Below, piece after piece: positions 6,959-59,591 of a DNA stretch of 64,000 nt. Where the stretch lies: NCBI GenBank assembly GCA_934276735.1, contig CAKQTG010000001.1, positions 224,455-288,454 of the forward strand, in the 5' to 3' direction. A model generated the notes under the pieces. That model was not told the origin of the DNA. It ran no database searches and was given only the letters and a program-made list of their open reading frames with translations. Source of the stretch: an uncultured Alphaproteobacteria bacterium (GTDB lineage Bacteria > Pseudomonadota > Alphaproteobacteria > Rs-D84). The stretch's first letter is position 1. The number at the start of each line of letters is the position of its first letter. Both the position numbers and the translations under genes were made by a program.

Positions 6959-7459
6959 GTGAATAAAAAAATATTAAAAGAAAAGACCACCCCGGCCGTT
7001 GGCCACCCCTCCACCGGAGGGGAACTTGCTGTGTTCCCGTCGCGGACCAAGTTCTCCTCCTGTGGAGGAGTACCTGCAGGGGGAGGTGGTCTTGCTAGCA
7101 AGTCTGTTGTTTCATTTAATTTGCCGTATAACAAAAAGTTAGTTCAGCGTGCCAAGGATTTACGAAAATCTGGCAGTCTGCCCGAAGCGTTGTTATGGCG
7201 TGAAATTAAATCAAAGAAAATAAATGGTCTGGATTTTGACCGGCAAAAAGTTATCGGGAATTACATCGTTGATTTCTTTTGTGCAAAAATAAAAACAGTC
7301 ATAGAAATTGATGACAAGACGCACGAGTTAAAAGAGCGACATGATACCATACGAAATAAATATTTACAGGATTTGGGACTGAGAATAATTCATATACCTG
7401 CAAAAGATGTGTTGAAAAATCCATCATCTGTGGCAGAATTGCTGATAGGTATTTTATAG
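6959..7459 (+). CDS. DUF559 endonuclease-domain protein (Vsr-like fold); true start uncertain, possibly downstream of the palindromic element
   Basis: C-terminal 110 aa (LVQRAKDLRKSGSLPEALLWREIK...GNYIVDFFCAKIKTVIEIDDKTHE) matches the DUF559 pattern. The N-terminal 45 aa are Gly/Pro-rich low complexity encoded by a GC-rich palindromic element. Confidence 0.6.
   Translation: MNKKILKEKTTPAVGHPSTGGELAVFPSRTKFSSCGGVPAGGGGLASKSVVSFNLPYNKKLVQRAKDLRKSGSLPEALLWREIKSKKINGLDFDRQKVIGNYIVDFFCAKIKTVIEIDDKTHELKERHDTIRNKYLQDLGLRIIHIPAKDVLKNPSSVAELLIGIL
7001..7102. repeat. GC-rich nest of palindromes/hairpins (RPE/REP-like element)
   Basis: Hairpins cccctcc-acc-ggagggg (7006-7022), ggaac/gttcc (7021-7037) and ctcctcc-tgt-ggaggag (7054-7070). 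Also the 8-bp palindrome cctgcagg (7073-7080) and the 12-bp perfect palindrome cttgctagcaag (7091-7102). ggaacttg (7021-7028) is complementary to caagttcc (7048-7055). Confidence 0.55.
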
Positions 7460-7468
7460 GTAAAATAA

Positions 7469-7867
7469 ATGAAAGAATATTTGTTGAACAGTGTGGAAGA
7501 AACGCGCGACTGGGCGCGGGAATTTGCGAAAACCTTGCGTGCGCCGGTATGTGTGGCGTTGCACGGCGACCTGGGAATGGGCAAGAGTGAGATTGCCCGC
7601 ACAATAATTCAGACCCTGCGTGGGGCGGATACTGTTGTGCCCAGTCCGACATTTACCATTGTGCAAAACTATGATGGAATATCACACTTTGACCTGTATC
7701 GCATAAATGATGCGTCAGAATTGGTGGAAATTGGGTTGCCATATGCAATTGCAAATGATATTACGTTGATAGAATGGCCCGATGTCGCAACGGATGTTTT
7801 GCCAACGGATACAATTCATATTTATCTGACAGAATACGGGGCAGGGCGCAGATTGGTTATAAAATAG
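7469..7867 (+). CDS. tsaE: tRNA threonylcarbamoyladenosine biosynthesis ATPase TsaE
   Basis: P-loop ALHGDLGMGKSEIARTI and overall YjeE/TsaE pattern, 132 aa. Confidence 0.85.
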   Translation: MKEYLLNSVEETRDWAREFAKTLRAPVCVALHGDLGMGKSEIARTIIQTLRGADTVVPSPTFTIVQNYDGISHFDLYRINDASELVEIGLPYAIANDITLIEWPDVATDVLPTDTIHIYLTEYGAGRRLVIK

Positions 7868-8023
7868 GAAATGTCGCCTATGGTAATCGTAGACATGGCG
7901 CGTAATAATAAAAATGCGTATGGAAACATTCGCACAAGAGCACACGCGCGGACTTTTGCATAAAGGTCCCGAACCACATCCCTAAGAAAGTGGATTCGTC
8001 AAGAATTCATGAAACGCGGTGTT

Positions 8024-8052
8024 CAAAAAACGGGGCGTTTGCCCCGTTTTTA
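8024..8052. terminator. bidirectional Rho-independent terminator (tsaE / ftsA-rpe convergent)
   Basis: aaaaaacggggc-gttt-gccccgttttt. The stop codon of the minus-strand gene lies in the T-run. Confidence 0.7.
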
Positions 8053-9819
8053 TCGCTTTAATAAACTCTGAACTGCCAGGGGAAAATCCGGACTGCGTGC
8101 CAAATATGAGCCGCTGACCAATAAATCTGCGCCGGCGTCCCAGCACATTTGTGCTGTTTTATCATTTATTCCACCATCTACTGAAATTATAAATTTCAGT
8201 CCGTATTTTTTACGTGTTGCGGCCAAAACAGAAATCTTTTTCAGGCAATCTGTTTGGAATTCTTGGCCGGCGGCACCTGGGGCGACGGTCATAACCATAA
8301 CTTCGTCCACATCACGCAGAATTGGCTTTAATATCGCAGGTGATGATTCTGGGTTCAGGGCAACGCCTGCACGACGCCCTGCCGCGTGAACGCTGGCAAT
8401 AGCCGCACGCAGACCAGACGTATTTGTTGACATGATAACCGTGTCGGCACCGGCGGCAACACTGTCGGTGGCCCAGACGGACGGACTCTCGGTCATCAGG
8501 TGTACGTGCAGGTGTGCGTCAGTGTGGGCACGTATCATCTTTAATTCTGGAATACCACCCGCCACGCGGTCAACATAGAATCCGTCCATAATATCAACGT
8601 GTATCATTGATATTCCGCCCGCACGAAACATTGAATATGTTGATGCACGACGCATATTAAAACACAGTGTGCTGGGCATAATTGGAATAAAACGACGGCG
8701 GTGTGCTGGGCGTTTGCGGAACAGTTTTGTTATAAAAGCAATGCGACGCTGTATACGATCACGACGCGCCAGGTACGCGCCACGATGAGTCGCCTCGGCA
8801 TTCCAGACGTGCGCACATGCCGCCCGAACAATTGCGTCATTGGAAATATATTCGGTCGGAATTGAAAATGTGTTTTCAATGAACTCGGTCGCCCCCTCGG
8901 CCAGTGCGCCACCACCGGTCAATATAATCTTGGTTGGGCGATATTTGATAATCGCGTCATGAGCCGCAGTCGTTATTTCGGCGGTAATATCAACGCATGC
9001 TGGCATAAATATATCGATGACATCGCCACGTGAAAATTCGTATGCGGTATCGGCGGGGGTAAATCTATCCATTTCTTTGGGGATAAAACTGGCTACTGCA
9101 CGCTTTATCCGTTCAGCGTCATCAAAACCTATGTGCAATTTTGCAGAAATGTCGTTTGTTATTTTTGTTCCACCCAGTGGAATTTTATAGTGCCAGACTG
9201 GGCCACGGTCGGTCCAAATGGACGCTGATGAAAATTCCCCGCCCAGGTCAATGAACATGACTGTTTGTTTCTTTTGTCGCAATGTTGTATTCAGTAAAAA
9301 TTGCGGGTCATAAAATGCACAGGGTGTGATATGGGCGCGACGCAGAAAACCCAATACTTCGTTCAATCGCGATTTCGTATAAAATATTGCGCCAAACGCC
9401 GATATCAGCTGTCGGTCGGTATAGCCAATTGGACTAATCATATTGCGTGCGGTTGGCGTATCGTATCGCAGTGGCACGATATGCATTGGAAAGTATCCGT
9501 CAGGCGCGTTTATCTGGGCAATCTGGGCACGGACATCGGCAGTTGTGATTTTGTGTTCGCCGCCCCAAGCGGTGCTTTTTGCAGTCATTTCAAAAATAGA
9601 CGTGCCAAAATTCCCCGTGATATATGCGGTGTCAAAACTGGTTCCGATTTGATGTTCCAGATCGTCAATTACATACCGCAGTGCAAACACGGTATCAAAA
9701 CAATCCGATGTTGAAATTGCAGATTTTACAATCTTGGCCCCACGGACACGGTGTGCCATTCCGCGCACACCGGTCGATCCAATGTCCAGACATAAAAAAG
9801 CCGAATCAAACAGGTTCAT
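8050..9819 (-). CDS. ftsA: FtsA (actin-like cell-division ATPase) fused in frame to ribulose-phosphate 3-epimerase (Rpe); single 589-aa ORF
   Basis: N-terminal ~370 aa carry the FtsA motifs LCLDIGSTGVRG, FIDLGGEFSSASIW and ILTGGGALAEG, plus a C-terminal amphipathic segment IAFITKLFRKRPAHRRRF. Translation continues without a stop into a complete Rpe barrel (HVDIMDGFYV ... ISVDGGINDKT ... LLVSGSYL). Confidence 0.7.
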   Translation of the reverse strand: MNLFDSAFLCLDIGSTGVRGMAHRVRGAKIVKSAISTSDCFDTVFALRYVIDDLEHQIGTSFDTAYITGNFGTSIFEMTAKSTAWGGEHKITTADVRAQIAQINAPDGYFPMHIVPLRYDTPTARNMISPIGYTDRQLISAFGAIFYTKSRLNEVLGFLRRAHITPCAFYDPQFLLNTTLRQKKQTVMFIDLGGEFSSASIWTDRGPVWHYKIPLGGTKITNDISAKLHIGFDDAERIKRAVASFIPKEMDRFTPADTAYEFSRGDVIDIFMPACVDITAEITTAAHDAIIKYRPTKIILTGGGALAEGATEFIENTFSIPTEYISNDAIVRAACAHVWNAEATHRGAYLARRDRIQRRIAFITKLFRKRPAHRRRFIPIMPSTLCFNMRRASTYSMFRAGGISMIHVDIMDGFYVDRVAGGIPELKMIRAHTDAHLHVHLMTESPSVWATDSVAAGADTVIMSTNTSGLRAAIASVHAAGRRAGVALNPESSPAILKPILRDVDEVMVMTVAPGAAGQEFQTDCLKKISVLAATRKKYGLKFIISVDGGINDKTAQMCWDAGADLLVSGSYLARSPDFPLAVQSLLKR

Positions 9820-9824
9820 TTCGT

Positions 9825-10505
9825 CTATTTTACCAATATTCGCGCCGTGTCGCGCATATCAATCGTTTTTATATCACGGGATAAAATTTTGTGATTTTTA
9901 TCCAGAACAATCAATTGTGCAATTGCGTCATTGGGTGTCTTTTCAGGTAACATGACCGTAATTCCACCTGTTGTAACTAAATTCCAGCGACGATTTTCAA
10001 TCCATTCCATGTAATCCAGGTCGCCAATCAAATTATGCGCCACGTCAGTTATTTCGCCAACTTCTGATGGTAATGGGCCACGAAATAATACTGTTCCGGA
10101 TTTACGTTCGGTGTCCGGTTGGTTCACGATTGTGCCATCGGCCGACAATGGAAAGTAATTCTGACCATCAGTCCACAGGGCAACGGCCCGGTATAACTTT
10201 ACACGCACGACCAAATTGCCGTCGGCGCGGCGATTAACAGCCGATGCACGCACGCCCGGCACCGCACCAACGCGGGCGTTCAGTGCGTCCAGGTTAACGG
10301 AAAAAGTGTCTGTTCCTGGTGCAACTGCGGCGGCCGCGACCAGGGCGGATAAATCCTTGTCCCGGATATCCGCAGATATAGAAATATTGCGCACACGCGA
10401 CAATGTTGTATGTCCCATTGTCGTCATGATAATTCGCACAGAAAAGTATATCGCCAGCAAAATTGCGACAATAAAATACAGCCAAAACCAGATTGTTCGT
10501 TTCAT
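9825..10505 (-). CDS. ftsQ: cell division protein FtsQ (POTRA); ATG at 10505 within longer ORF
   Basis: N-terminal TM helix (WFWLYFIVAILLAIYFSV), POTRA-like region, position immediately upstream of ftsA. Confidence 0.75.
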   Translation of the reverse strand: MKRTIWFWLYFIVAILLAIYFSVRIIMTTMGHTTLSRVRNISISADIRDKDLSALVAAAAVAPGTDTFSVNLDALNARVGAVPGVRASAVNRRADGNLVVRVKLYRAVALWTDGQNYFPLSADGTIVNQPDTERKSGTVLFRGPLPSEVGEITDVAHNLIGDLDYMEWIENRRWNLVTTGGITVMLPEKTPNDAIAQLIVLDKNHKILSRDIKTIDMRDTARILVK

Positions 10506-10564
10506 GGCTATAATTATATCACAAAAAGCCCCGCGATAAAAGCGGGGGTAAATAAAAATTAAAA

Positions 10565-10945
10565 TCAACTGGCGCGTAGCAAATAACCGCGTCTAAACAT
10601 ACACCTGCGGTATGCGCCGACAGTTTTAGATGTTGTATTTCGTGGCACCGACATCAGGGCCCGCTGACCCGCGTCGGTATATTCATTGGATTGAAATGTC
10701 ACCCACAGACCGTCCCAGTCCGGCATTTGGCCACTCTGGTTCGGGGCCAACAGTTTGGCAATACGGCTGCGTGGCATATATGACGGCTTGGTTATCCCCA
10801 GGCATGCCTTGTGGTCACGAACAAATTGTTCCATGGTGACGGATTCATTTTCCCAATTCAAAACCGTGGCATCGTCAATGTTGCCACGATTTGGGGACGC
10901 ACATGCCGCCAGTGCCATTATTAATGCCAGATATTTTATTCTCAT
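10565..10945 (-). CDS. small lipoprotein, hypothetical (126 aa)
   Basis: Signal peptide with lipobox LAAC-A (MRIKYLALIMALAACASP). Confidence 0.55.
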   Translation of the reverse strand: MRIKYLALIMALAACASPNRGNIDDATVLNWENESVTMEQFVRDHKACLGITKPSYMPRSRIAKLLAPNQSGQMPDWDGLWVTFQSNEYTDAGQRALMSVPRNTTSKTVGAYRRCMFRRGYLLRAS

Positions 10946-11021
10946 GTTTTATATTATAATTTATTTGCCTTTGGGGGGCAATAGTTTTTATAATAGGCAT
11001 AACAAGGAGAAAGAGAATATC

Positions 11022-11348
11022 ATGGCAATAACAGTTGCTAATTTTATAAAGATGGCAAACTTCTATAACCAGATGGCAAAAATGATGTCAGCAATCTGTG
11101 TAGAAAAGGGTGGCATAGCGATGGAAAATTATGTCGGGCGTTTCTTTGCGGCCGATACGTTGGAATTCGTTGCCGAATACGGACGTCGCCTGGTGGCGCA
11201 GCGGCCCAGTGACCTGACACCGGAAATTGTTGGGGTGATTGAACGCTTTGAAGAAAGTTACAAACGGGTCAAGGATTTAACGACACCAACACAGAAACCA
11301 ATTTATGAAATGACATTGGCAGAATTTGAAAAAATTATGAACATATAA
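11022..11348 (+). CDS. hypothetical protein (108 aa)
   Basis: ATG preceded by aaggagaaagag RBS; the upstream part of ORF 10755..11348 is antisense to the lipoprotein gene. Confidence 0.45.
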   Translation: MAITVANFIKMANFYNQMAKMMSAICVEKGGIAMENYVGRFFAADTLEFVAEYGRRLVAQRPSDLTPEIVGVIERFEESYKRVKDLTTPTQKPIYEMTLAEFEKIMNI

Positions 11349-11352
11349 AAAC

Positions 11353-12723
11353 GTGGCAAAGGAGATGTGGCGGATGAAAACAATGAAAAAAATATTTGGT
11401 GGGGCCATGGCAATAACGCTGGTGGTGGCGTTGCTGGCGGCGTGCACCCAGAAAAATGCCGCGACCGATATGCCCCAGTATGATACGGTGACGGTTGTAG
11501 ATAACCTGGTCATTGATGAAAATTCGGTGCCGATTTTCCCGAAAAAGGCGGCACTGACCACAGATACAGCACGTCGCTTTTCCCTGGATTTGCCAAAGCG
11601 GTGCGAGGTAAATTGGGATAACCAGGCGGTTGTTTCCGTTGTTCCCGAAGAAAAAATTGAAATTATTCGTCTGAATACCGGTGACGCGTTGCCAGAATTA
11701 CAGGTGTCGGACTATGAATTCAAGAAATTGACGGTAAAACGTGCATTGGATAAATTGCTGGACGGAACAGATATATCGGTCATAGAAGACGAAGAAATGA
11801 TTGAAACTGTATCTGGCTCAATCAATTCTGGTAAATTGTCTGATGCGGTTGAACTGATGGCCAAGATGGGGCGTGCGTATTATTCCTATGATGCCGACGC
11901 CGGCGAAATTCATTTGACGCATCGTGCAAAATGGTTGGTAAAAATGCCACACGACCAATCTATTATTATGGCGTTGATTGACGCAATGCGTGGCGCAGAT
12001 GTGCGAAATCTGTTGGTGGACTGGAACGACAAGACGTTGGTGTTTGAAGGAAATTACCAGACCGAGCGCGAGGTTTCCAGAATCATTGCTGATGTCGCGT
12101 CCAAGAAATATATGCTGGCGTGGGACATTGATGTGTATCGCGTGTACCCACGCACAGACAATCCGATTGTTTGGATGAATATGTTGCCGGCATTTGGGGA
12201 CAAAAATATTAAAATGTCTATCCCAGGCGTGGTGGGGCGTGCGCTGGTTGTGGGACCGGAAATTAATACCAAGACGTTGCAAGAATTCTTGTCGCAACAG
12301 GCAAACGTAGTTTTGATATCCCAGGGTCAGTTTGTAATTCCAAACGGTTGGCAATCGCGTTTTGATATCGGGCAATGCAGCAAGGAAGAACGCCTGGAAA
12401 CAGATTTGATTATTGGTGCAACGGGCAAGTATGGCGATTTTGGCGGCCGTGATAAAATTGATGCGAAAATCGTTTTGCGAACCAGTAATGGCGAATTGTC
12501 ATCGTTTAACATTCCGTCAAGCATTGGTGATAACTATGTGATTATCGGTATTCCGACGCATTCGTTCGTGACAACACCTGAAACGCTGATATCACCGTTT
12601 GCAGAATTAGTTGTGTTTATGTCACCGCGTGTGATTTCCATTGTTGATGCACACGCTGCACCAAGTGGCGCGTCTGCGCCACTGGTTGGTGACGCATTAC
12701 GTAAATTTTTACGCCAAGAATAA
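11353..12723 (+). CDS. secretin-like outer-membrane lipoprotein (lipobox LLAAC; start may be 11386)
   Basis: Lipoprotein signal MKKIFGGAMAITLVVALLAACTQ. The C-terminal third resembles the secretin domain (VVLISQGQFVIPNGWQSRFDIG ... DNYVIIGIP ... AELVVFMSPRVI, cf. secretin terminus ELLIFITPRIV) but lacks the canonical GGL/PxLGxIPxLGxLF segment. Confidence 0.5.
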   Translation: MAKEMWRMKTMKKIFGGAMAITLVVALLAACTQKNAATDMPQYDTVTVVDNLVIDENSVPIFPKKAALTTDTARRFSLDLPKRCEVNWDNQAVVSVVPEEKIEIIRLNTGDALPELQVSDYEFKKLTVKRALDKLLDGTDISVIEDEEMIETVSGSINSGKLSDAVELMAKMGRAYYSYDADAGEIHLTHRAKWLVKMPHDQSIIMALIDAMRGADVRNLLVDWNDKTLVFEGNYQTEREVSRIIADVASKKYMLAWDIDVYRVYPRTDNPIVWMNMLPAFGDKNIKMSIPGVVGRALVVGPEINTKTLQEFLSQQANVVLISQGQFVIPNGWQSRFDIGQCSKEERLETDLIIGATGKYGDFGGRDKIDAKIVLRTSNGELSSFNIPSSIGDNYVIIGIPTHSFVTTPETLISPFAELVVFMSPRVISIVDAHAAPSGASAPLVGDALRKFLRQE

Positions 12724-12742: not shown

Positions 12743-13999
12743 ATGTTATTTTCAAGACTAGAAAGAAAAATCGCATTCAGATACCTGGCCGCAAAAAAGC
12801 GCGGATTCGGTTCTGTTATTTCATGGGTGTCGCTGATTGGCATTACGCTGGGGGTTGCAACACTGATTGTTGTTATGTCAGTTATGGGCGGATTTCACGA
12901 AACGTTGTTATCGCGTATTGTTGGTATGAACGGTCACGTTGTTGTTTATCATCAGGACGGCGCAATCAGTGATTTTGATTATCTGATTGATAAAATGAAA
13001 CAGAACAAGGTTGTGTCAGCAAATGCAACTGGTATCGTTCCTATTGCCGAGGGGCAGGTTATGGCCACTGCCGGTGGTAATAATACAGGGGCGATGGTGC
13101 GCGGAATTCGTATGACAGACCTGACTGCCAAGACCCAGGCAGGAACAAAAATTTATGGCAAGAAATTATCCGAAATCCGTGATGGTGAATTGATTGCGGG
13201 GGCGTCACTGGCGCGCAGTCTGCGTATCGGTATGGGGGACAAGGTATCGTTGGTATCTGCCAATGGGGCGACGCCAACACCATTTGGTTCAATGCCACGC
13301 ATAATGTCATATCCGGTTATGTCATCGTTCTTTATGGGTATGTATGAATATGATTCTGGATATATATTTATGCCACTGGAAACCGCCCAGAAATATTTAA
13401 ACATCGGTAATGCCGTAACGCATATTGATTTGTTCCTGCGCAATCCCGAAGATACGACCGCCGTGCGCGATGCGTTGGTGCGTCTGTTGCCAGATGGTTT
13501 TGTCGTGCGTGATTGGCGCGAATTAAATCGTGGCTTTGTCGGTGCGTTACAGGTTGAATCAAATGTGATGTTCTTGATTTTAATGCTGATTGTCATTGTG
13601 GCAGCATTTAATATTGTGTCGTCGTTGGTAATGCTGGTCAAGGACAAGAACAAGGATATAGCCGTCCTGCGCACGTTTGGGGTATCGCGTAAATCGATGA
13701 TGAAAATATTTATTTTGTCTGGCACCAGTATCGGTGTTATTGGCGCGTTCTTTGGCACGGTGTTGGGTGTTATTGTCGCGATTTATATCGAGCCTATACG
13801 CCAGTTTTTCCAGTGGGCAACGGGGCGCGACCTGTTTCCGGCAGAATTGTATTATCTGTCTGAACTGCCATCTAAATTGGTGCCGGGGACTGTGATTGGG
13901 ATTGCGGTGCTGGCGATTGCATTGGCGTTTCTGGCGACAATTTATCCGGCATGGAAGGCTGCATCAACCGACCCGGTCGATGTGCTGCGAAATGAATAA
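12743..13999 (+). CDS. lolC: lipoprotein-releasing ABC transporter permease LolC/LolE (single-permease type)
   Basis: MLFSRLERKIAFRYLAAKKRGFGSVISWVSLIGITLGVATLIVVMSVMGGF is the LolC/E N-terminus; FtsX-like C-terminal TM bundle. Confidence 0.85.
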   Translation: MLFSRLERKIAFRYLAAKKRGFGSVISWVSLIGITLGVATLIVVMSVMGGFHETLLSRIVGMNGHVVVYHQDGAISDFDYLIDKMKQNKVVSANATGIVPIAEGQVMATAGGNNTGAMVRGIRMTDLTAKTQAGTKIYGKKLSEIRDGELIAGASLARSLRIGMGDKVSLVSANGATPTPFGSMPRIMSYPVMSSFFMGMYEYDSGYIFMPLETAQKYLNIGNAVTHIDLFLRNPEDTTAVRDALVRLLPDGFVVRDWRELNRGFVGALQVESNVMFLILMLIVIVAAFNIVSSLVMLVKDKNKDIAVLRTFGVSRKSMMKIFILSGTSIGVIGAFFGTVLGVIVAIYIEPIRQFFQWATGRDLFPAELYYLSELPSKLVPGTVIGIAVLAIALAFLATIYPAWKAASTDPVDVLRNE

Positions 14000-14018
14000 T
14001 GGTGTGGGGGCAAATCAT

Positions 14019-14729
14019 ATGGCAAATATTTTAAATTCTTTATCGCGTGTGAAAAAAGGTGACGTTGTCCTGTCTGTGCGCGATATTAAAAAGACATTTA
14101 TCGAAGGTGGACAGCCCTTGCACATTTTGCGCGGTGGCGGTTTTGATTTGCACCGTGGTGAAATTATCGCATTGGTTGGACAATCGGGATCTGGAAAATC
14201 TACGCTGTTACAGTGCGTCGGATTGTTGGATAAACCCACCAGTGGCAGCATTTTGCTGGACGGGGCGGCAACGAACCGCATGGACGAAGACACTCGCACA
14301 ATGATGCGTCGTAACAAAATCGGATTTGTGTACCAGCGGCATAATCTGTTATCTGATTTTACGGCATTAGAAAATGTTGTTTTACCAATGTTGGCGGCGG
14401 GCACAGACGAAATCACGGCAAACGGCCGCGCGATGAAATTATTACAATTGGCCAGTGTTGCACATCGTGCATCGCACCTGCCCGGGGAAATGTCCGGGGG
14501 CGAGCAGCAGCGCACCGCGGTTGCGCGTGCGTTGGCCAATAATCCGGAAATTTTACTGGCCGACGAACCGACTGGCAGTTTGGATCCAGCACATGCAACT
14601 GCGGTGTTTGATTTGCTGTTGGAATTGGTGCGCAAGAATAAAATGGCAATGTTATTTGTGACACACGATATGAATCTGGCCGCACGTGCCGACCGAACAA
14701 TCACAATTCGTGATGGAATTGTAAAGTAA
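14019..14729 (+). CDS. lolD: lipoprotein-releasing ABC transporter ATP-binding protein LolD (alternative overlapping start at 13992)
   Basis: Walker A GQSGSGKST, ABC signature LSGGEQQRTAVARAL, Walker B LLADEPTGSLD. Confidence 0.85.
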   Translation: MANILNSLSRVKKGDVVLSVRDIKKTFIEGGQPLHILRGGGFDLHRGEIIALVGQSGSGKSTLLQCVGLLDKPTSGSILLDGAATNRMDEDTRTMMRRNKIGFVYQRHNLLSDFTALENVVLPMLAAGTDEITANGRAMKLLQLASVAHRASHLPGEMSGGEQQRTAVARALANNPEILLADEPTGSLDPAHATAVFDLLLELVRKNKMAMLFVTHDMNLAARADRTITIRDGIVK

Positions 14730-14758: not shown

Positions 14759-15610
14759 ATGAAAAAAATATCAACCACAAAATATGAAACCACCGTCCCC
14801 ACATCGCGCAAGGTTTGGGGTGTGCTGGCACTGGCCGGGTTATTTACATGCGGTGTATTTATCGGAACAACATTGAATAATAATCGCACGCCTGATACAG
14901 AATTTTCCGATGACGCATGTCGCGAATTGGCGGATAAAATTGCCGGCGAAACAGACGAGGCCACATTAGAACAACTGGGTGAAACATATTCCGAACATTG
15001 CACTGTGGACGCATCAGATCAGAATACAACCAGCCTGTCACGGTGCCAGTGGTTCGAGAAAATACTTTCTGCGCGCTTGTGTCCAGACGATAATCTGATG
15101 AATGATAGCTATTGCCTTAAACAAAATATTGATATTTATAAAAAATTGGTGACATACGGTTGCCCAGAAAATCGTGATAAATATGTTGAAATGGCGAGTA
15201 ATCAAGACACCTTATTGAATGCTGTGTTTGGTGAATACAACTTTGTAACCAAGGAAGTTTCAACATGTGAACGTATTGAACAATTGTTGAAGGGAAGATT
15301 GAACCCAAAAGATGTTGATAACTTTAATTATCATTTGGAAAATGCGGAAATCTATGCACGTCTGGCAGAACGTGGATGCCCAGAAAACGCCGATAAATAT
15401 CGTGCATTGGCCGCCAGTGAAATAGAAATCACAACGGCATTACAACCGGTTGAAGCTATGTCTGATATTGACGTGGCAGAGGTTGTTGATGTCTATAAAA
15501 AGGTGAAAATGCAGGCCGCCGCGCAACAGGTAATTGATACCCTGCAAAAGGTTTCTGAACCAACCATAGATTTTATTTTGAAACTGGAAAAAATTGTAAA
15601 TGAAGAATAG
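14759..15610 (+). CDS. membrane-anchored periplasmic repeat protein, hypothetical (283 aa)
   Basis: aggaga RBS; N-terminal signal-anchor WGVLALAGLFTCGVFIGTTL; internal repeats YKKLVTYGCPENRDKYVEMA and YARLAERGCPENADKYRALA. Confidence 0.55.
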   Translation: MKKISTTKYETTVPTSRKVWGVLALAGLFTCGVFIGTTLNNNRTPDTEFSDDACRELADKIAGETDEATLEQLGETYSEHCTVDASDQNTTSLSRCQWFEKILSARLCPDDNLMNDSYCLKQNIDIYKKLVTYGCPENRDKYVEMASNQDTLLNAVFGEYNFVTKEVSTCERIEQLLKGRLNPKDVDNFNYHLENAEIYARLAERGCPENADKYRALAASEIEITTALQPVEAMSDIDVAEVVDVYKKVKMQAAAQQVIDTLQKVSEPTIDFILKLEKIVNEE

Positions 15611-15620
15611 GGGGCGCGTT

Positions 15621-16265
15621 ATGAAACGTTTGTTTGTTGCGATTTCGGCACTGGTGTGTGTTGGGTGGACGGCGGCGCATGCGGCTGATGTTGCACCGCG
15701 TATGTCGTGCGCAGATATTAAAACCCAGATGGATACATTGTTCGCGCGTGATGATTTAACCGATGATGAATCAAAACAATTGACCGATATGCGCACAAAG
15801 TATCGTCGTGATTGTGTTAAACGTGCGGCGGGTGGTCGTGGTGCGCAAACTATTGCGGCCGCACGCGCACCGGTTGCAACCGATGATGCGAAAAATTCGG
15901 ACGCCGCCGCGGCCACACCTGGCGCACCATGTGATACCCCGGACGAACATGGTTGCTGTCCGGGTGAAACGTATACCGATATGGGTGACCAGGGATTTAA
16001 TTGTTGCCCGTCTGATGGCGGCATGTGCTTTACGCCAATGGTGCTGAAATCGGTTGAAAATACCGAAGTTCAAGACGATGCACCTGTCAAGACAGACGAA
16101 GAAATCGCGGCGGAAATAAATGCGAATATTGCGGCAGGTCTGTGCGCCGATGGCACCAAGCCGAATAAGTATGGTTGTTGTGCCGATGAATTGTTCCGCG
16201 ATATGGGCGGAACGTTCGCGTGCTGTCCAAAAACGGGCGGTGACTGTTTCCCGCCGATGAATTAA
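15621..16265 (+). CDS. secreted cysteine-rich tandem-repeat protein, hypothetical
   Basis: Signal peptide MKRLFVAISALVCVGWTAAHA. Two copies of the module GCCPGETYTDMGDQGFNCCPSDGGMCFTPM / GCCADELFRDMGGTFACCPKTGGDCFPPM. Confidence 0.55.
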   Translation: MKRLFVAISALVCVGWTAAHAADVAPRMSCADIKTQMDTLFARDDLTDDESKQLTDMRTKYRRDCVKRAAGGRGAQTIAAARAPVATDDAKNSDAAAATPGAPCDTPDEHGCCPGETYTDMGDQGFNCCPSDGGMCFTPMVLKSVENTEVQDDAPVKTDEEIAAEINANIAAGLCADGTKPNKYGCCADELFRDMGGTFACCPKTGGDCFPPMN

Positions 16266-16282
16266 GATAATGGGAAGTTGAA

Positions 16283-17902
16283 ATGAAAAAAATAACATTT
16301 ATAACAAGTGCATTATTGCTTTCGGCATGTGGTGGTGGAAGTGGCACCGGCACAATTGACAATCCTGGGGCAGATGTTGTTGTCCCAGAATACGCAGATT
16401 TTTTGACAACAAGTTTGGCTGAGACCCAGGATAATTCAGTTGAGCTGAACACGTATGTTGAGTCCGTTTTGGGCTCGGATGGTGAAGTTGTGTCAGAATC
16501 AACCGGGAGACGGTCTGGCACCCGAAAAGTTAAAAATCATCATCACGATGCTCAATATAATAGCAAGCAACTTGATGACATGAAAGATTTTTTTGATAAA
16601 GATGATGAGTATAAAAAAGAATTTATATCAAGAAATCGTGATTTGGTGAAACGGTATGCCAAACTTGCATGTGGTTGTGATATGAAGGATTTTGATTTTG
16701 ATGGAAGATCAGATGATGACGTTTTTCATCATTTAAAGAGTGATGCTTTTAGACCCAATGAAGTGTGGAAAAAATATCACTATCGTCAGGAACAACTGGC
16801 AAACCAGAAATTATATTCTGGCAGTGGTAGCCGTGATTGGGGTAATGGGTATGTAAAAATCACAAAGTTGCAAAATGGAAAAATAGCGAATATAAAGTTG
16901 TATGACGATTGGTATGAGCGCGAATTTAATTTTGATAAAGGCTCAGACAATAAATTTTACGCGACACCTTATTCTTATGCTATTCTATGTGGTGCAGGCT
17001 GTATTATTCAATATAACACAGACAATACAAACGAGAGTTTTGAAAGCATTAAGGCCGGATTGCAATACACGTTGGATTCATTCGTGTATCCGCTTACAGA
17101 GGAACAAAGACAGATAGCACAGGACGCTATTGATTCATTAACATCTGAAACTGCACCAATAATATTAAGTCAAACAGAAATGGAAGGTGGTTCGTATACG
17201 TCTGGTTTCTTTAAGATACCAAATCATTTTGCGGTGGATGTTCGTGCCTATGGCAAGCAGGTTGGGTTGCAATATGCTGATTTTGGTTCTGTCGTTGGTA
17301 GTCAATGGCTTGATGGAAAACGGAGCGAAACAGATAATGGCATTGGATATGTGTTCGCGGGTGGTTATGGTATAAAAAACATAAATAAACAAAATATCCA
17401 AGGTAGTATGAATTTCAAGGGGCAGGCTGTCGGTCATGTTATGTACCATGAAGAAAATGCAAATGGGGTTGCCACTGATGATTATATGTTTGTTAAATCA
17501 AACGCAAATTTGACATTCCAGGCCGATGGTACAGAAAAATTGTTTATGAATTTTTCTGACAATGCCGATGTAAACAAAAGGTGGTACGATGTTGAATATA
17601 CGAAAAAGGGTGATGACGTTAGCGTAACACTATCAAATGGCGACAGGATTGCCGCAGAAAATGCAAAATATAAGTTCAAAGATACTGAATATAGTGGAAA
17701 ATTTACACAAGAAATTGTTGATGAAAAGTATAATCGAATGATCTCGTGTGATTTTGATTCAAAATATTATGGCGATAATGAAAAACCGTCAGAAGCAACA
17801 GGTGTTGTAAACTTACTTGATCAAACGTGGGCCAAAGATAGTGCTGAAGATAAAGAATTATTTTTTACGGCGGCGTTTGGGGCTAAAAAAGATAAACGGT
17901 AG
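16283..17902 (+). CDS. surface lipoprotein, TbpB/fHbp-like C-terminal beta-barrel family (539 aa)
   Basis: Lipobox LLLSAC followed by a GGGSGTG linker. C-terminus ...LFFTAAFGAKKDKR matches the conserved FGAK ending of TbpB_B_D/lipoprotein_5 barrels. Clearly more AT-rich codon usage than flanking genes. Confidence 0.6.
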   Translation: MKKITFITSALLLSACGGGSGTGTIDNPGADVVVPEYADFLTTSLAETQDNSVELNTYVESVLGSDGEVVSESTGRRSGTRKVKNHHHDAQYNSKQLDDMKDFFDKDDEYKKEFISRNRDLVKRYAKLACGCDMKDFDFDGRSDDDVFHHLKSDAFRPNEVWKKYHYRQEQLANQKLYSGSGSRDWGNGYVKITKLQNGKIANIKLYDDWYEREFNFDKGSDNKFYATPYSYAILCGAGCIIQYNTDNTNESFESIKAGLQYTLDSFVYPLTEEQRQIAQDAIDSLTSETAPIILSQTEMEGGSYTSGFFKIPNHFAVDVRAYGKQVGLQYADFGSVVGSQWLDGKRSETDNGIGYVFAGGYGIKNINKQNIQGSMNFKGQAVGHVMYHEENANGVATDDYMFVKSNANLTFQADGTEKLFMNFSDNADVNKRWYDVEYTKKGDDVSVTLSNGDRIAAENAKYKFKDTEYSGKFTQEIVDEKYNRMISCDFDSKYYGDNEKPSEATGVVNLLDQTWAKDSAEDKELFFTAAFGAKKDKR

Positions 17903-18359: not shown

Positions 18360-18394
18360 AATAAAAACACCCGCGTGCCGGGTGGTTTTATTTT
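18360..18394. terminator. bidirectional terminator at the 3' end of lpoA-like gene
   Basis: A-run, hairpin cacccg-cgtgc-cgggtg, T-run ttttatttt; contains the lpoA stop codon. Confidence 0.6.
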
Positions 18395-19979
18395 ACTCTT
18401 CGATTTCCACGCTGTCGATATAGGTGCGGTTAACGCTTTCCAGGCTGGACGGTTGAAAGTCTGGATTTTCAATTGGGTCACTGTCATCTTCGGGCAGGAC
18501 TGTTATATTTTCAACCGGTGGCGTCACGGTTGTGTTGCGTGTCATGTTCGCACCAAACGTTTTGGATTTATATTTCCCGTTCAGGCGTTCTGGAATACGG
18601 ATATAGTTCATCGGATTTATACCGTCTGTTTCCAGTGCCATTTCAGATGCCGGGATAATGTGGCGTTGTTCAATGTTATAAATTGGCGTCATAAAGTTTT
18701 GTGGTGCCGCCCGCACGGTGCGTGGGGTGCCACTGGCGTCCAGTTCCAATATGCGCAATGCGCGTTGGCTGTCCCCGTTTGGACGCAGGCGGACCAGGCC
18801 ACTGGCCCCGATATAACCGCTGGGGTCCAACAGGTATGCGGCGTCTGATTTATCAGAATAAATCATGCCTATTGCCATATTTGCAGCATCATATCCAAAT
18901 GCCGCCAGATGTGACGGTGCAGTACCAGATATCTGGGAATAAAGGTTAGCAAAATTTTCATTTATTTCAGGCAAGGCTGCATACTTTGCCCCAGACATTG
19001 TAAAATCAGATGTTATGTTTGAACCGTCCCACATTGTGGTGCCATAAAAACGTGCGTCACGCGCCGATACGTTGTAATAGCGCAAGAAAGATGCTAATGC
19101 CATTGAATCATCGCCTGTGCCCAGGAATAAAACCGCATCATACGGCGCCGCGCCCAGTGTGTCTGATTTTGATATTTTATCCAGTTGCATTGACAGTGAT
19201 GATTTTTCAATCGCGGTCAGGCGTTCCTTGGTCAAAATGTCGGACAATATTTCGCGTGCGCGTGTGTTTGCCGCGGTGCGCGCCGCGTTCATTGATGCGC
19301 GCATTGATGCGTTCTTGATTGATTCAGAATTGCCCGGTGTGTAATAGATTATGCCGACCAATTTTATGCCGTAAATTGACGCCGCATTTTTCGCTGTACC
19401 CGCCATTAGACGTCCGGATTCTGTGTCTGGTGCCAGAATTACAAATTTAGTCACGTTGTCAGATGACATTTCTTTGGTAATAGCCTCGACACTGTTGGTG
19501 GGCATCAGGTTCATTGTCATAATTCCGTCGCCAACTGCTGTTGCATCAGATGTGAACGACAGGGCAGGTGTGTCGACGGATTTTATCGCGTTTAACATAC
19601 GTGCGTCGCCTGCAAAAACGGGGCCAATTATAACATCTGGTTTTTCAGATGCGGCGTTTTCAAATGCGTCGCTGCGTGCGGTATCAAAAAATGTTACTGA
19701 CAGATTCTGTGGTGCACTTTGCAGAACGGCCATTTCAACCGATGTGCGGATTGTTTTGCCGGCACTTGCGTTTTGCCCACTGAGTGGTAATAACACTGCC
19801 ACGCGATGCATGTTGCCGTCGGTCGCGGAAAAATTCCCGTATTGCATTGATGACGGCGTACCGGCAACGTCATTGCCGTATTCAGCCCCCCAGTTGTTGG
19901 AACTGGTAATGCCACCGCCACCACACCCGGCCAGAATTGTTGCAATTGCGCAAAAACTAAAAAATCTGTTCATAAACAT
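18393..19979 (-). CDS. lpoA: LpoA-like lipoprotein (penicillin-binding protein activator; periplasmic-binding-protein type I fold)
   Basis: Lipobox ILAGC. Long type-I PBP-like domain; divergent arrangement with rsmI as for E. coli lpoA(yraM)/rsmI(yraL). Confidence 0.6.
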   Translation of the reverse strand: MFMNRFFSFCAIATILAGCGGGGITSSNNWGAEYGNDVAGTPSSMQYGNFSATDGNMHRVAVLLPLSGQNASAGKTIRTSVEMAVLQSAPQNLSVTFFDTARSDAFENAASEKPDVIIGPVFAGDARMLNAIKSVDTPALSFTSDATAVGDGIMTMNLMPTNSVEAITKEMSSDNVTKFVILAPDTESGRLMAGTAKNAASIYGIKLVGIIYYTPGNSESIKNASMRASMNAARTAANTRAREILSDILTKERLTAIEKSSLSMQLDKISKSDTLGAAPYDAVLFLGTGDDSMALASFLRYYNVSARDARFYGTTMWDGSNITSDFTMSGAKYAALPEINENFANLYSQISGTAPSHLAAFGYDAANMAIGMIYSDKSDAAYLLDPSGYIGASGLVRLRPNGDSQRALRILELDASGTPRTVRAAPQNFMTPIYNIEQRHIIPASEMALETDGINPMNYIRIPERLNGKYKSKTFGANMTRNTTVTPPVENITVLPEDDSDPIENPDFQPSSLESVNRTYIDSVEIEE

Positions 19980-20028
19980 TGAAAATCCCGTTCGTATTCT
20001 GTATCATTTTACTATAAAAGGATTACGA

Positions 20029-20829
20029 ATGCAATCAGGGCTTTATATTGTTGGAACGCCAATTGGAAATTTGTCCGATATGTCGCCACGTGCGATTGAA
20101 ACACTGAAAAATGCGGATTTAATTGCGGCCGAAGATACACGCGTTTTTGCAAAACTGGCATCGCATTTTGATATTAAAACCCCACGGGTTGCCTGTCACG
20201 ACCATAATGAACGCGATGTTGTGCCAGAATTGGTTGAAAAATTACAAAATGGTATGACGATTGCGACCGTGTCTGATGCGGGTATGCCCGCAGTATCAGA
20301 TCCAGGCTTTCGTTTGGTGCGTGCGGCGCGAACGGCCGGGGTGCCAGTGTTTGTTGTGCCGGGGCCTACGGCTGGGGTGGCGGCATTGGTGCTGTCTGGA
20401 TTCCCGACAGACCGATTTACGTTTTGCGGATTTTTTGATGAAAAGAAATTACGTGATGATAACAAAATCCGTCATACGATTATTTATTACGAGAGTCCGA
20501 ACCGTATCATGGCGACGATTGCCGCGCTGGCGCGGGTAATGCCTGATCGCCAAATTGCCATTGTGCGCGAAATAACCAAGATTCACGAAGAGGCGATAAT
20601 TGGATATCCTGCGGAACTGGTGAATATCGAGCCGCCACGCGGTGAAATTGTAATTGTGGTTGCACCTGCACAAGACCACAAAATGAGTGATGATGAAATC
20701 ACAGATATTGTAAATGACATTGTTGCTAATTCTACGAAATCGGCAGCGTCTGCATTGGCGGCGCGTGCCGGCATTTCCAAGAAAGAGGCGTATCGTCGTA
20801 TGCTGGCCAAGGGGGACGCAAATGATTAA
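20029..20829 (+). CDS. rsmI: 16S rRNA (cytidine1402-2'-O)-methyltransferase RsmI (266 aa; the 5' extension of ORF 19423.. is an artefact)
   Basis: MQSGLYIVGTPIGNLSDMSPRAIETLKNADLIAAEDTR is the RsmI/tetrapyrrole-methylase N-terminus. Confidence 0.85.
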   Translation: MQSGLYIVGTPIGNLSDMSPRAIETLKNADLIAAEDTRVFAKLASHFDIKTPRVACHDHNERDVVPELVEKLQNGMTIATVSDAGMPAVSDPGFRLVRAARTAGVPVFVVPGPTAGVAALVLSGFPTDRFTFCGFFDEKKLRDDNKIRHTIIYYESPNRIMATIAALARVMPDRQIAIVREITKIHEEAIIGYPAELVNIEPPRGEIVIVVAPAQDHKMSDDEITDIVNDIVANSTKSAASALAARAGISKKEAYRRMLAKGDAND

Positions 20830-29151: not shown

Positions 29152-29175
29152 TTATTACACAAAGGGACGTTTAAT

Positions 29176-29655
29176 ATGACACGAATTTTGGGAATTGACC
29201 CAGGACTGTTGCATACCGGGTGGGCCATAATTGATACCCAGGGGCAAAACCGAAAATATATTGCCAGCGGGGTTATTCTGCCGCCGACGCGTGACGCAAT
29301 GCCGATGCGATTGGCAAATATTTTTCGTGGTGTTTCGAAATTGGTGGATACATTTACCCCAGATGTGTGCAGCATTGAAATTACATTTGTGAATAAAAAC
29401 CCACAAACAACACTTGCGCTGGGGCATGCACGTGCGGCGGCAATTGTCGCGGTGGCGTCGCGTGATATTCCGATATACGAATACGAACCGAACAAGATTA
29501 AAAAGGCACTGACATCGGCCGGGCATGCCGACAAAGACCAGGTGTATAAAATGGTGCGTATCTTGTTGCCGGCGGCGCGTCCCAAAACCCCAGACGAGAG
29601 TGACGCCATCGCTATTGCACTGGCTCATGCGAATATGATTAAATTCAGTTTTTGA
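29176..29655 (+). CDS. ruvC: crossover junction endodeoxyribonuclease RuvC
   Basis: MTRILGIDPGLLHTGWAIID ... catalytic acidic residues (DESDAIAIA). Confidence 0.9.
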   Translation: MTRILGIDPGLLHTGWAIIDTQGQNRKYIASGVILPPTRDAMPMRLANIFRGVSKLVDTFTPDVCSIEITFVNKNPQTTLALGHARAAAIVAVASRDIPIYEYEPNKIKKALTSAGHADKDQVYKMVRILLPAARPKTPDESDAIAIALAHANMIKFSF

Positions 29656-29702
29656 AATTATGCATAATATGATAGAATAAATAAACACACAAGGGGAATA
29701 AT

Positions 29703-29981
29703 ATGAAACAAGAAGTTTATGAAATCCAAGATATGAAATTATATGTGCGCCAGGCGACATTGTTTCGTTCATTTTTGATAAATGTAATTTTAGGGCTGGT
29801 GGTTGGTGCGTTGGCATTGTTTGTGCCGGGGTTCCTGTTTGCACTGGTTGTGGTGACGGGCGTTTCGCCGATGATGATGTTCTTTTCAATGATAAGCGGG
29901 ATTGCGCTGTGGCAAATGCTGGGGGTTGTATTTTTCTTGGTGCCGGCATTGGCAATCTGGTGGCAACGTTATTCAAAATAA
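29703..29981 (+). CDS. small two-TM membrane protein, hypothetical (92 aa)
   Basis: aagggga RBS; two hydrophobic helices; followed by a terminator. Confidence 0.5.
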   Translation: MKQEVYEIQDMKLYVRQATLFRSFLINVILGLVVGALALFVPGFLFALVVVTGVSPMMMFFSMISGIALWQMLGVVFFLVPALAIWWQRYSK

Positions 29982-58361: not shown

Positions 58362-59591
58362 ATGAAAAAGCAAATGTCTTTGTTTATTTGGGCGGTTGCC
58401 ATGTTGGGTATGAATCCCGTGCTGGCCGCGACAAACACGGGTGCACGCGCGGCATCCAGTGTTGATTTTTCGAACCAGCCGGCGACGCGTGCACGCACAA
58501 ATGTAAATTATCAAAAGTACCAGACACGCACAACCACGAGAACATATGATGCCAAGGACGCAAAGAATACTTATTACACCCAGCCACAGAATCGCAGCGC
58601 GCTGTATAAACAGTATGACGCGGGTCGCACAACAAAAACTACAACTGTTCGCACAACACGTGCGGATACATATCGCAGTGAATTAAAACGCAAATATTTC
58701 TTGGCGCATCCGTTCTTTCAGCCGTTGGGTGGCAAGTTTGGTTCGATAACCGATTTGTCATATGGTATGAATTCGTATGATATTAAACTGACACCATTGT
58801 CTGGGTATGATATTTCTGATACCAAGGCCAAGTGGGACGGCAAACAGTTTTCAATCAAGGAAGATTTCAGTTATGGTATCACCGACCGTATCGCGGTGTT
58901 GGGTATGTTGCAGTATGATTTTGCAAAATATAAATTTGATTGGTCAACCGCACCAGATGATAAAATGGATAACAATGATTTGAATCTGTTCGGGCTGGGC
59001 GGCCAGTGGCGTTTTATCGATAACGACAAATGGATTGCAACCGCATCTGCGTATTACCAGCACCAGAAAGATATTTCCAATAACTTTATTTTGGATGTCA
59101 AGGCCGGATACAAGATTTTGTCATCGACAATCTATGGTTTGGTGCGCGGTTGGTATGTTGACTTTGACGGTAATTCATATGGTAATGGGATAGAGGGAAA
59201 AACCGCCGAAGGCAATGATTCCAGCATCTTTATCGCATACAAGACCGATGTTGACAGCGCGTTCTATGTCGAAGGCGGACTGGGTGTGTTCAGCGTCCTG
59301 GATCAGGATTGGACATTTAACCTGGAAGCGTTGTTCGGCAACTATGACTGGCACAACCAGGCATCGTTAAAAGCGGCAATTGGGTGGCAACCAAATGATT
59401 GGTTCGCATTAAACCTGTATGGCAAAACATCAATTTATGACAGTGCCGATGACAAGACATTGGGTTACTGGGCATATGGTGCGTTGAATGCGTCGGGTGT
59501 TCCTGTGTATCAATGGCAGCAGCATGGTAATGCCAAAATCAGCAGTTATTCAGAAACAACTGTGGGATTGCAGGCGATATTCCAATTCTAG
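58362..59591 (+). CDS. outer-membrane beta-barrel protein, hypothetical (409 aa) with Thr/Arg-rich N-terminal extension
   Basis: Signal peptide ...NPVLAAT; alternating amphipathic strands; C-terminal aromatic residue (QAIFQF). Confidence 0.6.
   Translation: MKKQMSLFIWAVAMLGMNPVLAATNTGARAASSVDFSNQPATRARTNVNYQKYQTRTTTRTYDAKDAKNTYYTQPQNRSALYKQYDAGRTTKTTTVRTTRADTYRSELKRKYFLAHPFFQPLGGKFGSITDLSYGMNSYDIKLTPLSGYDISDTKAKWDGKQFSIKEDFSYGITDRIAVLGMLQYDFAKYKFDWSTAPDDKMDNNDLNLFGLGGQWRFIDNDKWIATASAYYQHQKDISNNFILDVKAGYKILSSTIYGLVRGWYVDFDGNSYGNGIEGKTAEGNDSSIFIAYKTDVDSAFYVEGGLGVFSVLDQDWTFNLEALFGNYDWHNQASLKAAIGWQPNDWFALNLYGKTSIYDSADDKTLGYWAYGALNASGVPVYQWQQHGNAKISSYSETTVGLQAIFQF

Follow-up and report, generated by a model that had tools for sequence, protein, structure and literature searches.

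We analysed a 64,000-nucleotide stretch of DNA from an uncultured alphaproteobacterium (contig CAKQTG010000001.1, positions 224,455 to 288,454; the whole stretch is called the window below), and in it an open reading frame (ORF) that joins ftsA, the gene of the actin-like division ATPase FtsA, to rpe, the gene of ribulose-phosphate 3-epimerase (Rpe). In the ORF list of the window it occupies 8050-9819 on the minus strand, starts with ATG and encodes 589 amino acids. An earlier note on this DNA had described one 589-residue ORF that runs from FtsA into Rpe without a stop, and the ORF list, Pfam, the family profile and a structural model all confirm this description. The peptides quoted there, IAFITKLFRKRPAHRRRF (about residues 359-377), IMPSTLCFNM (380-389) and HVDIMDG (407-413), are all present in the protein. 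The note did not mention the minus strand, the strong divergence of the FtsA part or the lack of a nearby ftsZ. The ORF, its parts and the gene that precedes it are as follows.

8050..9819, minus strand: ftsA::rpe ORF, 589 aa; the stop codon (8050-8052) is counted in
8794..9819, minus strand: FtsA domain, residues 1-342; actin-like fold with the FtsA-specific 1C/SHS2 insert
8686..8793, minus strand: amphipathic polybasic helix (residues 343-365) and disordered basic linker (366-378), from the model and the hydrophobic moment
8053..8685, minus strand: Rpe (beta/alpha)8 barrel, residues 379-589, from Pfam, NCBIfam and Foldseek
9825..10568, minus strand: ftsQ (POTRA and FtsQ/DivIB C-terminal domain), Pfam PF03799, E-value 1.2e-10

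The Pfam FtsA family (PF14450) matched residues 189-326 of the protein with an E-value of 1.8e-11 (44.9 bits, cutoff 31.8), and PF02491 (SHS2_FTSA) was matched in the distant orthologues P0144 and P0146. When the family profile was run against PDB sequences, it found FtsA (7Q6F, 3WT0 and 1E4F) at E-values of 1e-19 to 2.5e-24, PilM at 1.4e-12 and MreB at 7e-11. An AlphaFold2 model built from 41 homologues had a mean predicted local distance difference test score (pLDDT) of 91.9 and a predicted template modelling (TM) score of 0.63, which together point to two confidently modelled domains whose relative orientation is not fixed. All four FtsA subdomains (1A, 1C, 2A and 2B) were modelled at pLDDT >90. 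For the N-terminal part of the model, a Foldseek search of the PDB gave FtsA structures as all of the top 19 matches (TM-score on the target 0.65-0.75, over 343-389 columns), with PilM at 0.52-0.65. PilM and MreB were thus ruled out as the identity of the N-terminal domain, since both the profile E-values and the TM-scores favour FtsA. The nucleotide-binding motifs of FtsA have counterparts in the window protein, namely LDIGS (phosphate 1), HIVPLRY, DLGGEFS (phosphate 2) and LTGGGA (adenosine), and ATP binding is predicted from them. The FtsA of T. maritima, whose phosphate-2 loop (NLGYNFTG) is similarly non-canonical, binds ATP. According to the model, residues 1-342 are a divergent but structurally complete FtsA. 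As a separate observation, in a deep sub-lineage (P0144, at 8001-9716 of locus L082, P0150 and P0152) the phosphate-1 Asp is replaced, the motif reading IYPGR or IYFGR versus LDIGT, and the Rpe tetrad described below is intact.

The FtsA core is followed in the model by a helix at residues 343-365 and by a disordered basic stretch at 366-378, with pLDDT <50 at 368-373. We calculated the best 14-residue hydrophobic moment over residues 340-378 in 81 sequences; its median was 0.66, compared to 0.57 for the membrane helix of E. coli FtsA on the same scale. Within its own protein this region lies in the top ~1% of segments for hydrophobic moment, and its net charge is about +10. The linker (346-377) has a mean identity of 39% across the 81 sequences, the FtsA part 63% and the Rpe part 78%; despite the low identity of the linker, its amphipathic and basic character is conserved. 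The hydrophobic-moment analysis thereby backs the earlier suggestion of a membrane-targeting-like segment of FtsA at this place, and in the model residues 343-378 are what a retained FtsA-type membrane-targeting segment, now internal, should look like.

The C-terminal part matched Pfam Ribul_P_3_epim (PF00834) at residues 382-573 (E-value 5.3e-42; 143.9 bits, cutoff 21.1), and searches with hidden Markov models thus find both families, with PF14450 above its cutoff, in one protein. The family profile run against PDB sequences found the Rpe 2FLI at an E-value of 3.7e-60, and the NCBIfam Rpe subfamily NF004076 scored 170.5 bits, above its cutoff of 165. By Foldseek, residues 379-589 superimpose on S. 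pyogenes Rpe (2FLI) with a TM-score of 0.93 and a root-mean-square deviation of 1.4 A at 36% identity. The catalytic and metal-binding tetrad is H407, D409, H440 and D548 in the window protein and is kept in 38 of 40 aligned relatives; we take these residues to be the equivalents of H34, D36, H67 and D176 of S. pyogenes Rpe, from the alignment count and the known active site of 2FLI. Indeed, H407 and D409 are the metal ligands that had been read from HVDIMDG, and they align with the tetrad. The phosphate-binding loops (PGAAGQEF, DGGI and SGSY) and the Met cushion are also present, and the predicted metal and catalytic residues of the barrel are all intact. The first strand of the barrel had been called divergent; it does differ from the canonical sequence, but only mildly, as Pro-Ser is kept and most relatives retain the Asp (CFDM). 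We also noted that the Rpe half is 36% identical to the S. pyogenes enzyme and 35% to that of the potato chloroplast, and that the solved enzymes of Pseudomonas, Neisseria and Stenotrophomonas reach only 27-28%; the descent of the rpe moiety may differ from that typical of proteobacteria.

We compared the locus with a one-genome-per-species collection, in which 301 stretches were confirmed; the counts of loci given here cover the best 80, all full length. Their labels read 'Candidatus Enterousia' or uncultured gut Alphaproteobacteria/Rickettsiales, and the organisms are 'Candidatus Enterousia' and relatives, uncultured gut alphaproteobacteria of the GTDB order Rs-D84. Translated from the aligned start, each locus gave an uninterrupted ORF of 588-598 aa, without a stop or frameshift between the FtsA and Rpe domains (80/80), and with ftsQ directly 5' of the fusion (80/80). 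Reading frame and linker length were conserved to within 1-3 residues, and no relative had separate ftsA and rpe genes in place of the fusion (80/80 fused). The closed circular long-read metagenome-assembled genome (MAG) OZ007020.1, of 958,618 bp, is among these loci and has the fusion intact. We also searched 5.8 billion protein clusters and obtained 853 matches, of which the top 120 were all 588-595 aa long, with 100% query coverage and 64-100% identity, and came from NCBI, ENA and Logan assemblies. The 90% cluster of the window species itself holds 44 sequence variants; the 15 listed are of 589 aa (one of 572), and each is found on as many as 38 contigs, of which the longest has 930 kb. One related locus, L008 (CAVGNU010000015.1), is labelled 'Bacteroides fragilis'. 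It has the full Rs-D84 synteny block with a fusion 76% identical to that of the window, and its label probably results from wrong binning or labelling of the MAG.

These data bear on the alternatives that the earlier note had left side by side. An error of sequencing or assembly, or the loss of a stop codon in this assembly only, so that the real genome would have two genes, was a reasonable prior before genomes were compared, and no evidence in its support was found. It is excluded, as nearly as such a thing can be, by the identical architecture in 80 species-level loci from many laboratories and assemblers, the circular genome among them, and by the near-identical variants of the window's own cluster on dozens of contigs. 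The persistence of the fusion to 23% identity and the purifying selection on the linker, described below, speak against it as well. The other alternative, a genuine in-frame fusion, is borne out by the 80 loci, by the 44-variant cluster and by distant fused representatives.

The latter came from an exhaustive HMMER search with the FtsA part alone against 1.84 billion cluster representatives. Another 19 representatives of 50%-identity clusters had the length of a fusion (542-623 aa), the most distant being 23% identical in the FtsA part, and ordinary FtsAs of ~400 aa appeared only from an E-value of 7.5e-14 upward. In the alignment, every fused representative has the Rpe barrel, and the junction, (F)IPIxPS, is homologous in all fused members. 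In the distant members (26-27% identical) a divergent lolCD-like operon with two genes of no family is followed by ftsQ and then by the fusion; ftsQ was 5' of the fusion in six of seven distant loci (L082-L087) and was not recognisable in L081. The nearest unfused FtsAs are in ordinary murD-ftsW-murG-murC-(ftsQ-sized ORF)-ftsA-ftsZ clusters, and among their loci we found no intermediate in which ftsA and rpe are adjacent yet unfused. Neither the 64-kb window nor any of 87 fused loci has a second ftsA or rpe nearby. In our judgement, ftsA::rpe is very probably a genuine, ancient and vertically inherited gene fusion, characteristic of the order Rs-D84.

Nei-Gojobori estimates of omega for 11 species pairs were 0.035-0.08 in the FtsA part, 0.009-0.055 in the Rpe part and 0.02-0.33 in the linker. 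The low omega of the FtsA and Rpe parts indicates strong purifying selection, and thus that both halves are maintained. The two halves might still be made as, or become, two proteins from one ORF, either by internal initiation near codon 381, the Met of MPSTL that had been proposed as a start for Rpe, or by cleavage in the linker at 366-378. The linker is exposed and of low confidence in the model (366-379), and cleavage would restore the canonical C-terminal membrane helix of FtsA. Codon 381 is ATG in 32 and TTG in 21 of 81 genes, i.e. one or the other in 53/81. In the other 28 genes, however, it is TTA or CTG, and we therefore rejected a conserved internal start of Rpe as a general mechanism. 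Nor did the linker contain any other conserved in-frame start in the 80 loci; upstream of the junction no internal promoter site rose above the shuffled background, and no known protease site was found. A Shine-Dalgarno motif is absent at the junction, but 80 of 81 genes lack one at the genuine start too, so that its absence at the junction says nothing on internal starts and is no argument against two proteins. The frame and linker length kept in 80 loci, together with a junction that aligns across deep divergence, fit a selected covalent link, and separate FtsA and Rpe products seem unlikely to us.

Several observations weigh against a fusion in which each half does the usual work of its family. 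The single polypeptide of ~65 kDa is a prediction from the ORF only. The putative membrane helix is not at the extreme C-terminus, unlike that of ordinary FtsA, since 211 residues of Rpe barrel come after it. The protein scored 62.4 bits with the NCBIfam FtsA equivalog TIGR01174, far under the cutoff of 175.85, and the FtsA of the fusion is therefore very divergent; with the rpe equivalog TIGR01163 it scored 148.9 bits, under the cutoff of 212.6. The FVPN sequence of canonical Rpe reads YVDR throughout the fusion family, so the substrate of the Rpe half may differ. Finally, when the 64-kb window, the 80 loci (+/-8 kb) and 7 more fused loci were searched by tblastn with E. coli FtsZ, no ftsZ was found. 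As a positive control, the same query found ftsZ, at 43-53% identity, directly 3' of the unfused ftsA in L089-L091. As ftsZ follows unfused ftsA and none lies near the fusion, rpe occupies the usual ftsZ slot in the Rs-D84 lineage.

Part of this evidence would also suit an N-terminal domain that is no longer a working FtsA, being either a degenerate remnant of an actin fold or a membrane or regulatory module for the epimerase. The TIGR01174 score (62 bits for a cutoff of 176) and the identity to solved FtsAs of about 15-17% agree with such a loss, as does the position of ftsZ, which is not adjacent in 87 fused loci yet directly 3' of ftsA in the nearest unfused relatives. Moreover, there are sub-lineages without the phosphate-1 Asp (P0144/P0150/P0152) or without several of the ATP motifs (P0134/P0289). 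In opposition to this, omega stays at 0.035-0.08 across the whole FtsA part, the subdomains are modelled at pLDDT >90 with FtsA as the best structural matches, and the window protein retains the motifs HxxPxxY, DxG and GGG. The tight juxtaposition with ftsQ, by a gap of a few nucleotides or an overlap, is seen in every lineage, and the property of the membrane helix is conserved. We consider the loss of FtsA function quite improbable.

Low-GC relatives (24-25% GC) have a gene order exactly as in the window and keep the fusion at full length. As a side observation, these loci are:

L084/L085 8001-9770; L087 3001-4773; L088 116-1888; L086 4568-6295: low-GC fused loci

Two of the low-GC proteins, P0134 and P0289, are 75% identical, come from independent samples and have ORFs of 589-590 aa. 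They carry H407Y, D409T and D548C, their phosphate loops are gone and their FtsA ATP motifs are degraded; omega for this one species pair was 0.36 in the FtsA-like and 0.20 in the Rpe-like part, Nei-Gojobori values that are rough at this base composition. In P0131 the FtsA motifs are intact, and the Rpe part has H407N, H440N and D548Y as well as a loop deletion. A single nonsense mutation could drop a useless C-terminal domain, and the persistence of the barrel thus suggests a non-catalytic role of Rpe, at least in the low-GC lineages. These sequences suggest that a catalytically dead barrel may have gained a structural use for the FtsA part, for example in oligomerisation; Rpe enzymes form dimers or hexamers.

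The full-length dead Rpe of the low-GC relatives, with its omega of about 0.2, leads to a further reading, in which the Rpe barrel is an integral module of this lineage's FtsA that would serve self-association at the membrane or make the divisome sensitive to pentose-phosphate levels. We regard it as rather doubtful, though deserving of some weight. In a more radical variant, Rs-D84 genomes would be without FtsZ and the fusion would act in an FtsZ-independent divisome, a proposal that follows from the failure to find ftsZ near any of the 87 fused loci. In the window protein, judged by its sequence, both domains look functional.

Under the explanation that we favour, a genuine and ancient fusion, the FtsA part would perform its usual divisome task at the membrane, and the internal helix would still bind the membrane and so keep the barrel of Rpe on the surface of the membrane. 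The Rpe part would supply the ribulose 5-phosphate/xylulose 5-phosphate epimerase for a non-oxidative pentose-phosphate pathway without transaldolase. In Rs-D84, the genomes are <1 Mb and lack respiration, and this pathway has Rpi and Tkt, with Tal (transaldolase) being absent (PMC12306168). The probable origin of the fusion is an arrival of rpe at the place normally taken by ftsZ, with loss of the ftsA stop codon in the course of genome reduction. Division and pentose-phosphate metabolism may be covalently coupled, but this is only a possible mechanism.

We compared the two halves with solved members of their families. Like the FtsAs of T. maritima (1E4F/4A2A), S. aureus (3WQT), E. coli (7Q6D) and V. 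maritimus (7Q6F), the N-terminal half has the FtsA fold with 1C/SHS2; it also shares with ordinary FtsA the nucleotide motifs, an amphipathic basic helix after the core and a gene that directly follows ftsQ. It differs from ordinary FtsA in that the helix is internal and succeeded by a 24-kDa enzyme domain, in that ftsZ does not come next and in that TIGR01174 is missed. The C-terminal half has the same barrel, tetrad, Met cushion and phosphate loops as the Rpe enzymes of S. pyogenes (2FLI), potato chloroplast (1RPX) and human (3OVP), but, unlike ordinary Rpe, it follows the C-terminus of another protein in a single chain, reads YVDR for FVPN and misses the cutoff of TIGR01163.

Metabolic enzymes that moonlight as division regulators are known, such as UgtP in B. 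subtilis, OpgH in E. coli and GdhZ and KidO in Caulobacter. The Rs-D84 fusion likewise ties an enzyme of central metabolism physically to the FtsZ/FtsA machinery. Those regulators, however, are separate proteins that bind FtsZ conditionally, whereas the link here would be covalent and to FtsA, and regulation is, by this analogy, only a possibility. If the barrel is an integral module of FtsA, the fusion would be a covalent version of the links between metabolism and division that UgtP, OpgH and GdhZ provide; and if the variants with a dead Rpe mean a structural role, central carbon metabolism and the divisome would be covalently linked in it. The anchor of FtsA has also been altered by engineering, by exchange for the MinD helix or a transmembrane segment, or in sandwich fusions with fluorescent proteins; FtsA tolerates such changes around its membrane-targeting helix, and some membrane tether suffices. 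Those are laboratory constructs, while the fusion in Rs-D84 is natural and order-wide. A natural FtsA with a 24-kDa domain behind its anchor helix across hundreds of species is thus a test of how free the anchor and the C-terminus are. The fusion also marks the Rs-D84 lineage as one in which ftsZ is displaced from the end of the dcw cluster, with a metabolic gene in its place.

The fusion is a new architecture built from two well-known families, and it appears to be undescribed: we found no mention of an FtsA-Rpe fusion in the literature searched, PMC12306168 included, and the papers on Rs-D84/Enterousia contain no discussion of division genes. Public records of these proteins (e.g. MBR2412707.1 and MCL2629093.1; 570-595 aa) are named only 'ribulose-phosphate 3-epimerase'. 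The name omits the FtsA half, and automated reconstructions would therefore score the whole order as lacking FtsA. Equally, a reader who checks the division genes alone might overlook Rpe.

Upstream and downstream of ftsQ and the fusion lie the further features of the unit.

10565..10945, minus strand: predicted lipoprotein, 126 aa, lipobox LAAC, without a Pfam family
10953..10981, minus strand: best sigma-70-like promoter match, TTGCCC-17-TATAAT, 10/12; by consensus only, as the number of such sites in the region is not above that in shuffles
8024..8051, minus strand: intrinsic terminator, G+C-rich hairpin and U-run, RNA fold -17.4 kcal/mol, z -2.9

The stop of the lipoprotein gene overlaps the ftsQ start by 4 nt, and 5 nt separate the end of ftsQ from the ATG of the fusion. 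The terminator begins inside the stop codon of the fusion and lies between it and the convergent tsaE. The two genes upstream, the hairpin at the stop codon and the convergent tsaE therefore define the unit as lipoprotein-ftsQ-ftsA::rpe. More generally, ftsQ ends within a few nucleotides of the fusion start, with a 4-nt overlap in distant relatives; this near-zero gap and the lack of a Shine-Dalgarno motif suggest translational coupling or initiation independent of Shine-Dalgarno. Most of the 80 loci have the lipoprotein gene directly 5' of ftsQ, and in the low-GC relatives an equally long gene takes this position. The lipoprotein may be a divisome-associated protein not described before.

Divergent from the ftsQ unit is a four-gene lolCD-like block, which is kept even in 24%-GC relatives. 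In the window it consists of two conserved genes of about 108 and 456 aa (11022-12723, plus strand), which have no Pfam match and no function known from Pfam, followed directly by the genes of a LolC/E-like permease and its ABC ATPase (12743-14729). On the other side of the fusion, between uvrB and tsaE, a DUF559 endonuclease-like gene (6959-7459, plus strand) coincides with a dip in GC to 32% at 7200-7499. Only 6 of the 80 related loci have it (L001, L002, L008, L009 and L036 among them), and it looks like a variable, possibly mobile, insertion.

About 45 other genes of the window have, by Pfam, an ordinary housekeeping content, and none bears on the fusion. Sizeable ORFs without a Pfam family (283, 221, 539, 273, 185 and 409 aa) are found at 14759-17902 (plus strand), 29155-29976 (minus strand), 42386-42943 (plus strand) and 58362-59591 (plus strand). 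Two long ORFs on opposite strands overlap, one at 18393-19979 (minus strand), which is LppC/periplasmic-binding-like, and one at 19423-20829 (plus strand).

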